The notes beneath the pieces are model-generated. The model searched no databases, was not told the origin of the DNA, and saw only the letters and a list, made by a program, of their open reading frames with translations. From Pseudomonadota bacterium (GTDB taxonomy: Bacteria; Pseudomonadota; Alphaproteobacteria; Caulobacterales; Parvularculaceae), in contig JAYZEQ010000008.1 in NCBI GenBank assembly GCA_036337175.1, positions 121,088-185,087 of the forward strand: a DNA stretch of 64,000 bases, given 5' to 3'. Every line of letters begins with the position of its first letter. Position 1 is the stretch's first letter. This document shows, in pieces, positions 2,863-7,656 of this stretch. The position numbers were made by a program, and so were the translations under genes.

Positions 2863-3438
2863 TCAGCTTTGGGCGGCCTCAAACCCCTCTTTATCGATCC
2901 TGTAGAGGGCGAATCGCTTGAGCGGCCCTGGCGAAATATTGGGATGGTCGAAGCCGCCGTCATGGCGCATCCCGAGCCGCCGCATGACGGCGACCGAACG
3001 CAGATTTACTTCCGGCGTGAAGGCGACGACTTCCGAGGCGCCGGCCCGCTCAAATGCGAAATGAAGCGCCGCGCGCGCCGCCTCTGTGGCGTAACCCTTG
3101 CCCCAGAAACGACGGGCGAGTCGCCAGCCCAGTTCGACCGCGCCGGAAAAGTCGCTCCGGAACGTCGTCCGCGACAAGCCGACGAAGCCGATGAACGGCG
3201 CATCCACTGTCTCCACCGCCCAGAAACCGAATCCGTAGGCGCGGAACCGGTCCTGGATCGACTGGGCGACGCGGTCGCTACCGGCGCGGTCGTGACGGAA
3301 CGGAAAATACCGCATCACCTCCGGTGAGGCGCCCATCGCCGCGAACGGCGCAAGGTCCGCCTCGCGCCAGCCCCGCATCAGCAGGCGGCGCGTCGCCAGC
3401 ATCGGCGCAGGCGCGAACCTGACGCGAACCTCAGCCAT
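2863..3438 (-). CDS. RimJ/RimL-family GNAT N-acetyltransferase
   Basis: TRRLLMRGW..ADL, ELGWRLARRFWGKGYATEAA, N.RSVAVMRRLGM. Confidence 0.88.
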   Translation of the reverse strand: MAEVRVRFAPAPMLATRRLLMRGWREADLAPFAAMGASPEVMRYFPFRHDRAGSDRVAQSIQDRFRAYGFGFWAVETVDAPFIGFVGLSRTTFRSDFSGAVELGWRLARRFWGKGYATEAARAALHFAFERAGASEVVAFTPEVNLRSVAVMRRLGMRHDGGFDHPNISPGPLKRFALYRIDKEGFEAAQS

Positions 3439-4165
3439 CGCCCGTCCGCCTGCGGAGCAGTTCGAGAAGATTCGCCCGCGCTTCGGGCAACGGCCGGTTG
3501 GCGAGATGCAGGATGCGCGTTTCGATGAAATAGCCGGTGGTGGTCAGCGCTGCGACGGCCTCGTCGAGACTCGCCTCGCGCGCGGCGCCGCGCAGGAAGG
3601 CCGGCAGCGGCAGCAGCTTCTCCTTATAGGGCTCGCCAGCCGCCGCCGAGACGGCCGAGGCCGAGCGCGGCGATACATAAACGAGATTTTCGCGCGCGCC
3701 CGTCGCGGCGCAGCGGTCGAGAGTCAGCCCGAAGCCGAGTTCGGCGAGAAGCCCGAGCTCCCAGCGCGCCATCAGCGCCGGCCACACTTCGGGATCGTCG
3801 AGAACCCCGAGCAGGACCGTCATCGCGTGATAGAGGGGCGCATGCGGCTCGCGCTCCGGCAGCGCCGCTGACGCCATGGCGCACACGGCCGAGAGCGCAG
3901 CGAGCGACAGCCGGTCGTGCATCAGCTCGGCGGCGCGGGCGTGGACAAGCTCCAGCGCGAAATGACCAAGACTCTCGTCGAGCCGGCCTTTCCACTCCGC
4001 CCGCACTTCGTTGCCGGACTGAAGAAGGGGCTGGGCGCGTCGCCCCTGTCCGCCGTAGACGAGCCCGGACCACCGCCCGCGCGTCGGCGTGAAAATCTCC
4101 GCCACTGCGTGCGTTTCGCCATAGGCGCGCGCCCCGAGAATGACGCCTTCGTCGATGAACTCCAT
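3431..4165 (-). CDS. recO: DNA repair protein RecO
   Basis: MEFIDEGVILGAR.YGE, LQSGN.V...W.GRLDESLG, LGFGLTLDRCAATG..ENL.YVSPRS. Confidence 0.95.
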   Translation of the reverse strand: MEFIDEGVILGARAYGETHAVAEIFTPTRGRWSGLVYGGQGRRAQPLLQSGNEVRAEWKGRLDESLGHFALELVHARAAELMHDRLSLAALSAVCAMASAALPEREPHAPLYHAMTVLLGVLDDPEVWPALMARWELGLLAELGFGLTLDRCAATGARENLVYVSPRSASAVSAAAGEPYKEKLLPLPAFLRGAAREASLDEAVAALTTTGYFIETRILHLANRPLPEARANLLELLRRRTGDG

Positions 4166-4323
4166 GACCGCCTAGCTTAAAAAGTTTCGTCGAGACAGCG
4201 GTTTGCCTATACTGACATCGGCCCAAGCCTTCTGTTTCGCAAGACCTGAAGATCTTGGTCGAAGGAGGGCCGCATGGAAACGCCTCCACCCCGTGCGGGC
4301 GCTCGGGCCCGCCTGGAGCCTCA

Positions 4324-4890
4324 ATGGGCAACAACATAAAAGAGCTGCGGCTCGCCTTCCTGCTGACGCCGAAGGAACTGGCGGCGCGCATGGGGACCTA
4401 TCCCCAGCAGGTACGGCGCCTCGAGGACGCCGGCCGCAAGCTCAGCGACGAATGGATCGAGGCGGTCGCGGAGGCGTTCGGGGTGCCCAAGGCCGCCGTC
4501 ACCGATCCGTCCGCGGACATTCCGGCGATCGTCGCGGCGGCTCACCCCGCTGCGCCGCATTTCCGCACTTGCCCCATCGCCGCGCGCTTCGCCATCCAGG
4601 CGATGGCGGCGCGTCTCGGGGGCATGAAACTGGCGCTGGAATTGTCGGAAGACGACCTCGCGACGGCGGTCAGGAACCTCGTCGCCTATGTCGATGCGGC
4701 GCCCAAGGAGGAGCCGGAGGAAACGCGCGCTATTCGTCTCTCTCAAGCTCTTCAAATAGTTGTCTTAGCAATCCTTCAATCCCACGGGGTCTGGCTCGAT
4801 CCTCATCAGCTTCAGGCGATATCGTTTGCCGATCGGGGAGCGTCGTCGCTGATCCGCTGGTTCTCTGAGATTGATGAGACGGACTTTTGA
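4324..4890 (+). CDS. XRE/Cro-C1-type HTH transcriptional regulator with an unrecognised C-terminal helical domain (188 aa)
   Basis: NNIKELRLAFLLTPKELAARMGTYPQQVRRLE..GRKLSDEWIEAVAEAFGV fits HTH_3; start placed at ATG 4324. Confidence 0.8.
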   Translation: MGNNIKELRLAFLLTPKELAARMGTYPQQVRRLEDAGRKLSDEWIEAVAEAFGVPKAAVTDPSADIPAIVAAAHPAAPHFRTCPIAARFAIQAMAARLGGMKLALELSEDDLATAVRNLVAYVDAAPKEEPEETRAIRLSQALQIVVLAILQSHGVWLDPHQLQAISFADRGASSLIRWFSEIDETDF

Positions 4891-5166
4891 CCGGCAGCGG
4901 CACGATCTTGCCCCCGGCGCCGGCGCGGGATTCCCCTGAGAAGAGAGCCAGCGTCCGCCGATAGAGGCTTTCAGCGCGTTTACGCTCCTCGTCTTCCACG
5001 GCTGTTCCTTCCCCCAGTCCCACGCCCTTAGAGCGTTAACGGCAAGCATAACCGGCGTCTCTCTTGGGGCGCAAGAGACCGGATTATCAATCTGTTAAGA
5101 GAGGTAAGCGGATTCTATGCGACGCGCCGTCAAGAGGGGCGGCCGGCAGCATGGGAGACAACCGCT

Positions 5167-5472
5167 GTGAAAAAGTCGCTGAAAAAAGAGCAGGTCGGGC
5201 TGCTCCAGCTTGAAAAGAAAGTCATTGGAGTCGGGGCGGGGCTCGCAACCCTGACGAGCGCGGCGCACGCCGAATCCGTTCTCGGAGAGGCCTATCTCAA
5301 CCATTCGGCCAAGGTGACCGACGCCTACCTCAACCTTGTCCAGGCTTTGCAGGCCGCGCATGATGCCTTGGGCGAGCAGGCCGCGACCGTCGGCGCCGAG
5401 CTGATGCAGGACCGGGGCGTGCCGAAAACGACCCTCCTGGAGGCGGCCAAATCGGTACTTGGGATTGGATAA
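5167..5472 (+). CDS. Hypothetical 101-aa helical protein (possible peptide precursor)
   Basis: GTG start with GGGAG about 9 nt upstream; protein-like composition; no recognised family. Confidence 0.7.
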   Translation: MKKSLKKEQVGLLQLEKKVIGVGAGLATLTSAAHAESVLGEAYLNHSAKVTDAYLNLVQALQAAHDALGEQAATVGAELMQDRGVPKTTLLEAAKSVLGIG

Positions 5473-6008
5473 TCCTCGGCTTCTATGCGGCCTCTGTCGC
5501 TGTTGCGGTCGCGGCGGGCTACTGGTCGCGCTCTAGATACATATCAGGAGCGGCGAGCGTTGTCGGTTTTCTCTGGATCGGCTCGGTGCTCCTGTATTTT
5601 CTCGGCCGGGGAGCGACGCCAGCATGGCAGTTTGCAACCATCGATCTGCTGGCTCTGATTTATTTTTACCGGCGTTGGTCGGCGCCCAGCCCGCAACATC
5701 GGCAGTTTCACTTCCTGCTGATGTGCAGCTATCTCATAACCACCGCCTTCTACGCCTACCAGATCGCGTTGAAGCGTTTCGCGCCGGAAGCGCTGATGAT
5801 GTCAGGCTGGTGGTTCGAGCTGTTCAGCAACATTCTTTACGAAGCCGAGCTGATCGGCATCACCGTCTACGCTCTTCTCTTCCGGCGGGCGAAAGCCGAC
5901 AGGCGCAAGTTCCGCGCGGACGTCAATCGCTGGTTCGACGGCATGAGCGCCATGAAGCAATCGCTGCTGCGCGAAGACCGCAAGGTTCCGCGTCCTGATG
6001 AGAAATGA
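5451..6008 (+). CDS. Hypothetical polytopic membrane protein (~5 TM); probable ATC start at 5451, first canonical start is GTG 5586
   Basis: Frame open 5364-6008; hydrophobic helices start at WDWIILGFY (5460), upstream of GTG 5586; GGAGG (5439-5443) lies 7 nt before the in-frame ATC. Confidence 0.7.
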   Translation: MGTWDWIILGFYAASVAVAVAAGYWSRSRYISGAASVVGFLWIGSVLLYFLGRGATPAWQFATIDLLALIYFYRRWSAPSPQHRQFHFLLMCSYLITTAFYAYQIALKRFAPEALMMSGWWFELFSNILYEAELIGITVYALLFRRAKADRRKFRADVNRWFDGMSAMKQSLLREDRKVPRPDEK

Positions 6009-6026
6009 GCGGAAAGAAATCCGCCG

Positions 6027-6968
6027 CTATTGCACATTGTCGAGCCCGAGAGCGCGCAGCCGCGCCGCCTCGTCCGCCCAGCCCTCTCGCACCTTGACGT
6101 GCAGGAAGAGGTGCGCCGGTTCGCCGAGCAGCGCCGTCAGCTCCTCGCGCGCCGCAGCGCCGATGGCTTTTAGCGTCTGGCCGCCCTTGCCGAGCACGAT
6201 CCCCTTCTGGCCCTCGCGCGCCACATAGATCGTCTGCTCCACGCGCAGTTCGCCTTTTTTCGTCCGGGTCCAGCTTTCAGTCTCCACCGTCGCCTCGTAC
6301 GGCAGCTCCTGATGCAGGCGCAGATAGAGTTTCTCGCGCGTGACTTCCGCCGCCATCAGGCGCTCGGAGATATCCGAAAGCTGGTCTTCAGGATACATCC
6401 AGGCGCCTTCCGGCGCGCGTTGTGCGAGGAAGGTTTTCAGATCCTGCACGCCGTCGCCGCGCGTCGCCGAAACGAGAAACGTATCGCTGAAAACGCCGTG
6501 GCTGTTCAGATCGGCGATCAGCGCCAGCAGTTTTTGACGGGCGAGCGCGTCTGTCTTGTTGATGACGAGGATCGCTCGGGCGTTCTTTTCCTTCAGCGCC
6601 GCGACAATCGCATCGGTGTCGGCGGCCGCTCGGCGCGCCGCAGCGTCGGCGCGTTCGGCGCCGTTGCCGGCGAGATAGCTCGGCGCGTCGACGACGAGCA
6701 GCACCGTATCCGCGCCTTCGAGCCCTTCCCAGGCGGCCGCCACCATGGCGCGGTCGAGCTTGCGCTTCGGAGTGAAAATACCGGGCGTATCGATGAATAC
6801 GAGCTGCGCGCCGCCTTCGATGGCGACGCCGCGCACGCGGGCGCGGGTGGTCTGCACCTTGTGGGTGACGATCGAGACTTTCGCGCCGACCATCGCGTTA
6901 ACGAGGCTCGACTTGCCGGCGTTCGGCGCGCCGATGACAGCGATGAAGGCGCAGCGTTGCTCACTCAT
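6027..6968 (-). CDS. era: GTPase Era
   Basis: GAPNAGKSSL, VTHKVQTTR, DTPG, NKTD, KH domain EELPY/GQKGIVLGKGG. Confidence 0.97.
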   Translation of the reverse strand: MSEQRCAFIAVIGAPNAGKSSLVNAMVGAKVSIVTHKVQTTRARVRGVAIEGGAQLVFIDTPGIFTPKRKLDRAMVAAAWEGLEGADTVLLVVDAPSYLAGNGAERADAAARRAAADTDAIVAALKEKNARAILVINKTDALARQKLLALIADLNSHGVFSDTFLVSATRGDGVQDLKTFLAQRAPEGAWMYPEDQLSDISERLMAAEVTREKLYLRLHQELPYEATVETESWTRTKKGELRVEQTIYVAREGQKGIVLGKGGQTLKAIGAAAREELTALLGEPAHLFLHVKVREGWADEAARLRALGLDNVQ

Positions 6969-7656
6969 CTTCGCTCCATACGCCTTCGCGCACAAGAAAA
7001 GCGGCCGCCGCCATCATCTGCGCCTCGCGCTTCGAGCGACCTTCGCCGCGCGTCGGTTTATACCCGTCGATGCTGACTTCCACCTCGAATGCAGGCGCAT
7101 GCGCGGGACCGCCCGAGCCGACGACCGTGTAATGCGGCGCGCCCTTCTTGCGCTCCTGACTCCATTCCTGCAACGCCGTCTTGGCGTCGCGGTGGGCTTT
7201 CGAAAGAGCCTCGAGATTGGGCGTCCAGAAAAGATCGTAGGCGCGCCGCGCCGCCTCAAGCCCCCCGTCGATATAGAGCGCGCCGAGCAGCGCCTCGCAG
7301 GCGTCGCCGAGGATTGCTTTCTTCTTCCGGCCGCCAGCTTCTTCCTCATGCGGAGACATGCGGATAAGCTTGTCGAGACCGAAGGCGACCGCCGCCTTGG
7401 CGCATGTTTCCTTGCGCACTAGCGCGTTCAGCATCGGCGCGAGATCGCCTTCCTCATGGCCGGGATAATTGCGCCACAGCGCCTCGGCGGTCAGAAGACC
7501 GAGCACGCGGTCGCCGAGAAACTCCAGGCGTTCGAGATCGCGAACCTTGCCGCCGGCCGAGAGGCTAGAATGCGTCAGCGCCCGGTCGAGCAAGGTCGTA
7601 TCGGAAAAACGGTGGCCGATGCGCGCCTGAAGCGCCTCAACGTCGGCGCGGCTCAT
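6961..7656 (-). CDS. rnc: Ribonuclease III
   Basis: ERLEFLGDRVLG signature; DACEALLGALYIDGG; dsRBD DAKTALQEW. Confidence 0.97.
   Translation of the reverse strand: MSRADVEALQARIGHRFSDTTLLDRALTHSSLSAGGKVRDLERLEFLGDRVLGLLTAEALWRNYPGHEEGDLAPMLNALVRKETCAKAAVAFGLDKLIRMSPHEEEAGGRKKKAILGDACEALLGALYIDGGLEAARRAYDLFWTPNLEALSKAHRDAKTALQEWSQERKKGAPHYTVVGSGGPAHAPAFEVEVSIDGYKPTRGEGRSKREAQMMAAAAFLVREGVWSEDE

Follow-up and report, generated by a model that had tools for sequence, protein, structure and literature searches.

A conserved four-gene unit, here called R-A-S-M, occupies the gap between recO and era in the window, by which we mean the whole analysed stretch of 64,000 nucleotides from a Parvularculaceae bacterium (GenBank assembly GCA_036337175.1, contig JAYZEQ010000008.1, positions 121,088 to 185,087). 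R belongs to the XRE-type DNA-binding proteins and has a novel helical C-terminal domain; the small protein A is encoded on the strand opposite to the 3′ end of R; S, also small, is helical; and M is a membrane protein whose start lies inside S. Initiation of M at a conserved AUC codon behind a strong Shine-Dalgarno (SD) sequence is well supported by comparison among loci rather than by direct mapping. Relatives of the unit sit in phage and mobile-element settings. Taken jointly, and as read from sequence, the gene models are very probably right. The features of the unit, in window coordinates, are as follows.

4324..4890, plus strand: R, an XRE-family helix-turn-helix (HTH) regulator of 188 amino acids with a novel all-helical C-terminal domain
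4730..4999, minus strand: A, 89 amino acids, GTG start at 4999, convergent with R and absent from the list of open reading frames (ORFs)
4730..4890: convergent, dual-coding overlap of R and A, about 160 nucleotides, formed by the 3′ ends of both genes
5167..5472, plus strand: S, a helical protein of 101 amino acids with a GTG start
5439..5443, plus strand: GGAGG, the putative SD sequence of M, inside S codons and 7 nucleotides before the ATC
5451..5453, plus strand: predicted ATC start codon of M, in the -1 frame of S and 19 nucleotides ahead of the S stop
5451..6008, plus strand: M, a predicted inner-membrane protein of 185 amino acids with five transmembrane (TM) helices and a basic cytoplasmic C-terminal helix

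The first-pass annotation of this DNA had described three co-oriented genes on the strand opposite to era and recO, and the ORF map of the window does place three co-oriented plus-strand ORFs in the recO-era gap. That three-gene account stands in so far as R, S and M are real and kept together; it overlooked the fourth conserved gene, on the minus strand (4730-4999). The conserved co-occurrence of the triad that it anticipated was found in every locus examined. R, S and M stand in identical order in all 11 relatives of the genus, and the same order runs through 13 loci that we class as group A, a paralogous set (group B) and distant relatives with 51-57% GC. Reading frames stay intact over 25-80% identity among the loci, with codon-position signatures of coding sequence, and the module is under purifying selection rather than debris. 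Searches of Pfam, NCBIfam, PHROGs and PADLOC gave no match for S, M or A and recognised only the HTH domain of R, in keeping with the earlier description of the module as uncharacterised; an Rfam scan of 4000-6200 gave no match either. These comparisons support the view that the cassette is without characterised relatives and that its genes form a conserved, co-functioning module.

The R-S intergenic region shows protein-like conservation on the minus strand, and the N-terminal part of A, which is free of other genes, has codon-position entropies of 1.12/0.78/1.57, a coding signature. The GTG at 4999 lies behind GGGGAAGGA. A is conserved in all group A loci and in most of them measures 78-89 amino acids from a start homologous to GTG 4999; two loci (L014 and L015) have no start at the homologous site and read 99-109 amino acids. 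The protein opens with a helix, which is followed by a strand resembling NVIxLP and, after a linker, by an invariant acidic helix at the C-terminus, RGIEGLLRQLFEELERDE. Across group A its pattern runs MGD(R/E)EKAxxLYxRLxAIF...NVIxLP..., then the linker, then RG(I/L)EGLL(R/K)QLFEE(L/I)xxD(D/E) and the stop. All group B loci carry a counterpart of 82-93 amino acids ending in LREFLRRLAEEL.

The overlap takes in the last ~53 codons of R and of A. Over R codons 136-156 third-position entropy is 0.29, as compared with 1.37-1.56 elsewhere in R, and the C-terminal codons of A opposite that stretch are nearly invariant, the invariant acidic helix of A being antisense to a conserved helix of R. Such patterns are the signature of a dual-coding constraint on the shared stretch; the 160-nucleotide convergent overlap of two protein genes offers a clean natural case in which that constraint can be measured. 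A connection between A and M comes from the distant locus L080, which has no antisense gene. There, the M homologue (P0072) has a C-terminal extension ending RRLLRQLFDEIGTDD, essentially the C-terminus of A, and the A protein of L014 ends GLLRQLFEEIETDD, the counterpart of the P0072 end. Fusion of the C-terminal motif of A to M in L080 would tie A functionally to the cytoplasmic end of M, and since the A helix is part of M itself in this distant relative, we infer that A acts as an anti-repressor or adaptor.

The M frame is open from 5364 to 6008, and the earliest canonical start that it offers in the window is GTG 5586, where the membrane ORF had been listed as beginning (5586-6008). That listing proves to be a truncation, as homology starts at about 5451-5469, roughly 40 codons before GTG 5586, and takes in a whole TM helix. 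At every overlapping locus M lies in the -1 frame of S, and no ATG, GTG or TTG precedes the first TM helix of M in any of them. All of these loci instead have GGAG(G/A)-N7-ATC in the M frame, with the 7-nucleotide spacing seen in the window. The start position reads ATC in 30 loci, ATT in one (L083) and ATG in one (L084). GGAG-N7-ATC recurs in the distant relatives L080, L081, L085, L088, L090 and L091, and L081 and L085 have an in-frame TAA immediately ahead of the ATC. An ATA, CTG or CTA codon at a 4-nucleotide stop overlap was rejected as the start of M, as this codon varies among loci and differs again in L023.

The codons of S are constrained accordingly at the S/M junction, where 21 S genes were aligned by codon. 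The codon that supplies the A of ATC is AAA, CTA, TTA, CGA, AGA, GCA or CAA, which spans five amino acids and is always NNA (third-position A has a genome-wide frequency of 10.3%); the Ser codon that follows is always TCN and never AGY; and codon columns 98-99, which form the SD sequence, read NNG GAG in 20 of the 21 sequences. Were a canonical start to stand at the M position, S would need Cys or Trp instead of its conserved Ser. L084 shows this, its ATG being accompanied by Trp, a residue that the overlap dictates. In L087, 236 nucleotides separate S from M, M has its own SD sequence and ATG, and S lacks the X-Ser pair; here, with M uncoupled from S, the constraint is absent. In E. coli, AUC supports 1-2% of AUG initiation and the N-terminal Met is retained (10.1101/063800). 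The AUC start of M has long been kept, and the natural ATT and ATG variants, together with the uncoupled L087, provide controls. It belongs to the known class of near-cognate starts, of which infC of E. coli, with its conserved AUU, is an established case. In both, AUY and a proper SD sequence are kept over long evolution as the sole possible start; the start of M, unlike that of infC, is embedded in an upstream gene, and autoregulation of the IF3 type is without evidence at M.

Production of M as an S-M fusion, with a programmed -1 frameshift of the ribosome close to where S ends in place of AUC initiation, would also agree with the -1 frame of M at every overlapping locus and with the SD-like GGAGG upstream, as at the dnaX frameshift site. 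The topology would fit too, a signal-like segment of S and a periplasmic domain being followed by an M with an outward N-terminus. However, no locus has an X XXY YYZ slippery heptamer in the stretch from the ATC to the S stop, and the in-frame TAA before the ATC in L081 and L085 leaves an 18-nucleotide window for a shift. L084 has ATG exactly where the others have ATC, M is independently initiated in L087 and in the S-less copies of group C (below), and the 7-nucleotide GGAGG-ATC spacing is that of an initiation site. We regard frameshifting as highly improbable.

The AlphaFold2 (AF2) model of M has five TM helices and a C-terminal helix, with a predicted local distance difference test score (pLDDT) of 92.9 and a predicted TM-score (pTM) of 0.81. 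By the positive-inside rule, its N-terminus should lie outside and its C-terminus inside. Residues S28, D65, F72, W121 and N127 are invariant or nearly so family-wide, and the family alignment contains no invariant His or Cys. The earlier picture of a 5-TM protein with polar intramembrane residues therefore holds for the five helices and for the intramembrane Asp65 and Asn127; the His it had included, that of QHRQFHF, is invariant within group A only. A Foldseek search of PDB with M found no fold relative (best E 1.4). In BFVD, the top matches were the uncultured Caudovirales protein A0A6J5NI52 (TM-score 0.63/0.72, probability 1.0) and phiCbK K4JPZ4, and the M profile search also picks the latter (CbK_gp289), with the Asp and Asn motifs aligned. 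A profile run against 1.84 billion representative proteins gave 174 clusters at 50% identity, many of them called without the first helix. Public gene calls mostly truncate M and wholly omit the antisense gene A, so the family is misdescribed wherever it is present.

Alignments of S show a conserved, basic amphipathic N-terminus (KKEQxxLLxxEKK), an Ala/Gly-rich segment that is signal-peptide-like or weakly transmembrane and ends AHA, a helical hairpin, and finally an invariant GxPK turn with an S-[ILV]-[LF]-G-x-G tail; S has no Cys. A conserved helical protein of 101 amino acids with a turn, as first described, is thus what we find. A hypervariable segment, which had been expected in S, is not. 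The short variable stretch after GxPK covers 2-4 residues, and the C-terminal tail has been kept both by the group A and group B copies of one genome and by distant relatives, L080 included, whose S homologue (103 amino acids) matches the hidden Markov model (HMM) with E 1e-21. Since the tail is conserved between paralogous systems, S cannot hold peptide information that is specific to one system. In one group B locus (L032, G028:C3, ~3960-4270) S is frameshifted mid-gene and its first ~70 codons are in frame with M; the run may be a real fusion, a pseudogene or an assembly indel.

Residues 5-57 of R match HTH_3/HTH_31 (HTH_3 E 7.8e-7), the sole family match in the protein. Its C-terminal domain gave no family match, no tetratricopeptide repeat (TPR) match in Pfam and no Peptidase_S24, and the AF2 model (pLDDT 91.5) consists of 11 helices, an HTH domain and a helical bundle, with no S24-type beta fold. 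The C-terminal domain is modelled as a bundle of 5-6 helices over ~125 amino acids. Family search and model alike confirm the first-pass reading of an XRE HTH followed by an unrecognised helical C-terminus lacking S24. Foldseek of R against PDB recognises the HTH domain only; weak full-length matches were to Stl complexes (TM-score 0.27-0.29, E ~0.4), and those to ComR had TM-scores of 0.30-0.33 (E 0.6-0.7). Homologues of R fall into 42 unnamed clusters. When group A and group B regulators were compared with hhalign, the HTH alone was aligned, at 42% probability, and the case for homologous C-terminal domains is a common RLxQAL..V...IL motif together with their position. No R HMM matched the regulator of L080, which was treated as an analogue.

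Among 201 genomes of the order, the M family is confined to the window's own family, Parvularculaceae, where it occurs in 24 genomes from 6 of the 45 sampled genera, at 1-5 copies per genome. Within the genus, M was found at 42-79% identity in 12 of 37 genomes, and weaker paralogues in many more. Group B modules, which encode a 185-amino-acid HTH protein, a 104-amino-acid S and M, occupy a different syntenic site, and the window's own genome (G000) has a second, paralogous R-A-S-M at C2:874705-876182 with the S/M junction GGAGA-N9-ATC. Group C consists of M homologues alone, with an ATG start and without S.

Altogether the cassette is found at at least four chromosomal junctions: recO-era, the radA region, uvrC-pgsA, and that between an ABC-F gene and a deoxyhypusine synthase-like gene. 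Modules of the group A type sit at recO-era in five genomes of the genus and in L087 (which has a 56%-identical regulator), beside radA towards rplQ in seven genomes, with R divergent from radA, and between uvrC and pgsA in a lineage with ~51% GC. Many genomes of the genus lack the cassette, and their recO-era gap contains a ~1.27 kb cytochrome P450 gene, a gene for an S-adenosylmethionine-dependent methyltransferase, or nothing (L052-L079). As the content of this gap varies among genomes, the cassette is accessory and has moved.

Three of the sites adjoin repair or recombination genes, namely recO (divergent; window 3431-4323), radA (divergent; L017 4924-6373) and uvrC (upstream, same strand; L085 5988-8001), an adjacency that could reflect either chance at operon boundaries or a functional link. 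Variants in the radA region have a small Phage_base_V/DUF6484 gene upstream of the module (L088 4474-4839; L091 976-1311). This gene is directly upstream in L088 and L089, and two minus-strand genes separate it from R in L091; in L088 it is preceded by an RPE65-type carotenoid oxygenase gene.

The links to phages and mobile elements come from several loci. In L080 the genes for a 189-amino-acid HTH protein, the 103-amino-acid S and M face away from a group that comprises a cro-sized gene, further small genes, RusA, GcrA and MT-A70, a prophage-like layout of the immunity-region type. L083 adjoins a Phage_integrase gene. Group C copies of M (L030, L031, L034-L038 and L040) are accompanied by DUF736-like, TraF-peptidase-like and XRE genes and a relaxase-sized ORF, as in integrative and conjugative element (ICE)-like DNA. 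The remote family member phiCbK gp289 (L094 4065-4836; phiCbK 189064-189835) and A0A6J5NI52 have the same five-helix membrane fold as M (Foldseek probability 1.0, TM-scores 0.54-0.72) and share its Asp and Asn motifs, although identity to M is ~20%. Upstream of gp289, gp288 encodes an 86-amino-acid helical protein not detectably related to S; both phage proteins are annotated as hypothetical. Unlike the module loci, phiCbK is a lytic phage with no R or A gene nearby.

The divergent promoter region between A and S contains one further feature.

5084..5099, plus strand: direct repeat TTAT-N7-TTAAG, resembling a CtrA box

This repeat is the sole conserved block in an otherwise divergent A-S intergenic alignment of 13 loci, with the consensus TTA(A/G/T)-N7-TT(A/T/C)AC. 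TTAA-N7-TT[ATC]AC lies 80-115 nucleotides upstream of S in L081, L085, L087, L088, L090 and L091, as a perfect box in L081. In total, 19 of 20 scanned loci with a group-A-type regulator have a CtrA-like repeat upstream of S; L080, with its analogous regulator, has none. The CtrA consensus is TTAA-N7-TTAAC, and phages of Alphaproteobacteria use CtrA sites too (PMC9437464). Perfect CtrA boxes are ~9-fold enriched in this genome. The window motif matches 7 of 9 consensus positions, and the relaxed pattern is near chance genome-wide (71 observed, ~52 expected), which leaves the repeat as a lead, a putative CtrA site. A sigma-70 promoter scan of the cassette called no promoter, and terminator-like sites were weak. 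Control of the module by LexA was rejected, as the module contains no GTTC-N7-GTTC and the genomic frequency of this pattern is at chance. Just upstream of the CtrA-like box lies a local palindrome (5056-5081, GTCTCTCTTG-GGGCG-CAAGAGAC) that is not conserved in L013, and the paralogous module of the same genome has a conserved GGTTG-N20-23-CAACC inverted repeat upstream of S.

The function that we propose, tentatively, is a repressor/anti-repressor switch that derives from a mobile element and is coupled to a membrane complex; as a whole mechanism, we place it a little short of an even chance. S and M would form the membrane complex, S having its N-terminus inside and its helical hairpin in the periplasm. 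M would be made at a small fraction of the S level, given that AUC initiates poorly and that initiation would compete with ribosomes finishing S. A, as anti-repressor or adaptor, would join the cytoplasmic side of M to R, such that an envelope event alters the hold of R on the divergent A-S promoter region. The module would have settled at housekeeping gene junctions in Parvularculaceae and would now be kept by the host. With relatives in a prophage-like immunity region, by an integrase, in ICE-like DNA and in phiCbK, the most likely role seems to lie in mobile-element immunity or exclusion, which here would mean defence against phage at the envelope. One elaboration makes R-A-S-M a trans-envelope switch, in which a periplasm-facing S-M complex senses an envelope event such as phage attack, A serves as adaptor and R as repressor, AUC sets the stoichiometry, CtrA gates the system to phage-susceptible cells, and helices of A and R encoded on opposite strands of the same ~60 bp are in contact. 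This version is improbable; if true, A and R would be mutationally locked partners and a natural case of interacting sense/antisense peptides.

Several observations weigh against the mobile-element switch. The cassette has no homology to known exclusion or defence proteins in PADLOC or PHROGs, neither 50,697 phage genomes nor the plasmid collections contained a tblastn match to S, M or the M of group C, and a pattern scan of IMG/VR yielded no confirmed locus. Neither phage nor integrase genes lie near the window copy, and the phage-like context rests on a handful of loci. Group B is syntenic and widespread in the genus, which fits host housekeeping equally well. Export of S is suggested by a weakly hydrophobic segment, with a peak Kyte-Doolittle hydropathy of only 1.6. 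Finally, XRE dimers usually bind inverted repeats, and the direct repeat may belong to a regulator other than R.

Several of the same facts can be read in other ways. M could be a membrane-damaging protein, kept low by AUC and by occlusion from S-translating ribosomes and neutralised by S and/or A, with R autoregulating, in the manner of a toxin-antitoxin-like or abortive-infection pair. The near-cognate start kept in 30 loci, AUC being inefficient, would make sense for such a protein, as would the polar Asp and Asn within the membrane, the phage and ICE contexts, and a module that is mobile, accessory and multi-copy. Yet relatives that start with ATG (L084, L087 and group C) imply that high expression is tolerated, the M of group C occurs without S, and no similarity was found to known membrane toxins, holins or PADLOC systems. 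We consider this pair unlikely, if worth keeping in mind. The module might instead serve the host envelope in a way linked to the cell cycle or to DNA damage, say as a regulated factor in division or in the envelope itself, under the control of CtrA. Such a function would account for the CtrA-like repeat in 19 of 20 loci and the enrichment of perfect boxes in the genome. It would also account for the independent insertions beside recO, radA and uvrC, and for a group B that adjoins an ABC-F ATPase gene and is syntenic across the genus. The motif evidence is blunted by the 7 of 9 positions matched in the window and the near-chance count of relaxed matches, and with phages using CtrA sites as well (PMC9437464), the motif does not separate a host function from the mobile-element switch. 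Moreover, the module has no LexA box, and the repair adjacency amounts to three junctions; of these, both era-recO and uvrC-pgsA are boundaries between operons that are conserved and tolerate insertions. A host envelope role is, in our estimate, distinctly unlikely.

The first-pass annotation had favoured peptide signalling by a precursor/processor/receptor module, with S as the secreted precursor, M as its processor or exporter, and the C-terminal domain of R sensing the peptide. Conservation of the triad, a signal-peptide-like segment of S that ends in AxA, the 2-4 variable residues after GxPK and the non-DNA-binding C-terminal domain of R all speak for such a scheme. None of them is specific, though, and the specific expectations fail: the S tail is conserved in two paralogous systems of one cell and in distant relatives, M lacks AgrB-type His/Cys (no invariant His or Cys), S lacks Cys, and the ~125-amino-acid C-terminal domain of R is not TPR-like (ComR TM-score 0.33, E 0.6). 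Peptide signalling moreover leaves gene A and the A-M fusion without a part to play, and it fits poorly with relatives that belong to a lytic phage and to an immunity region of prophage-like type; it is very unlikely. Phage repressor debris was named in the first-pass annotation as an outcome that would tell against its proposal. Relatives do occur in phage-like settings, and a non-functional remnant of a degraded prophage immunity region would suit the context of L080, the lower GC over M and the patchy distribution in the genus. It is already contradicted, and scarcely credible, in view of four frames that stay intact in >30 loci diverged to 25-50% identity, coding-type codon-position patterns with the added dual-coding constraint, and paralogous copies retained within a genome. 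Being under purifying selection, the module is not debris.

Set beside known systems, the mobile-element switch most resembles two arrangements. In lambda, cI-rexA-rexB joins a repressor to exclusion genes expressed in the lysogen, one of which encodes a polytopic membrane protein. Like it, R-S-M places a gene for a small or soluble protein and one for a multi-pass membrane protein behind, and co-oriented with, that of an HTH repressor, an order found in all loci, and in L080 a cro-sized gene and early genes (RusA among them) likewise point away from the block. The lambda genes lie in a prophage, divergent from cro and the lytic genes, whereas the window and most module loci are at housekeeping junctions (L080 being prophage-like and L083 by an integrase); S and M have no sequence or fold similarity to RexA, RexB or PADLOC models; R lacks the S24 autocleavage domain; and the module has an extra convergent antisense gene. 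The self-cleaving repressors of the LexA/CI type as a class have an S24 Ser-Lys dyad domain, which was not found in R (no Peptidase_S24, and an all-helical AF2 model). The second arrangement pairs element repressors with protein anti-repressors, as when SaPI Stl is inactivated by phage dUTPase or coliphage 186 CI by Tum. These repressors share with R an HTH and a helical partner-binding domain without a protease, and the module encodes a small partner, A. The similarity of R to Stl is weak (TM-scores 0.27-0.29, E ~0.4) and binding of A to R would be by analogy. Unlike the partners of Stl and 186 CI, A is encoded opposite the 3′ end of the very repressor that it would bind, and its motif can occur within a membrane protein. 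The cassette may therefore work like the cI-rexAB and Stl systems without being a member of either; homology was tested for and not found.

Membership in the peptide-signalling families fails on their defining features, even though these too encode a small secretion-like protein, a membrane protein and an HTH protein together. RRNPP regulators combine an HTH with a TPR-type peptide-binding domain over ~250-350 amino acids and respond to a small exported pro-peptide whose mature C-terminus is system-specific; R, at 188 amino acids, has no TPR repeats, and S has no system-specific variable C-terminus. In Agr, AgrB is a membrane endopeptidase with catalytic His and Cys, and AgrD has a thiolactone Cys. 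M has no invariant His or Cys, S has no Cys, and neither matches the AgrB or AgrD Pfam families.

The finding bears on no long-standing open question. If the wiring proposed above is true, the module would represent an undescribed coupling of a membrane complex to a phage-type repressor, and, in marine Alphaproteobacteria, a candidate system of immunity at the envelope that has relatives in Caulobacter phages.

The immediate surroundings of the cassette in the window are as follows.

3431-4165, minus strand: recO, left neighbour of the cassette
4166..4323: divergent intergenic region between recO and R, presumed promoter region of R
6027-6995, minus strand: era, right neighbour of the cassette

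A repeat search around the cassette found no flanking direct repeats and no att-like sites. The membrane gene had been described as visibly more A/T-rich, and GC is indeed 0.57-0.60 over 5400-6000, as compared with 0.62-0.70 in the flanks. Beyond the cassette, at the recO stop and the start of a GNAT gene, GTTC-N7-GTTC, the LexA-box pattern of Alphaproteobacteria, occurs on the minus strand at 3415-3429. The pattern was observed 76 times genome-wide (~82 expected), and uvrA, imuB-like and uvrD-like genes carry it.

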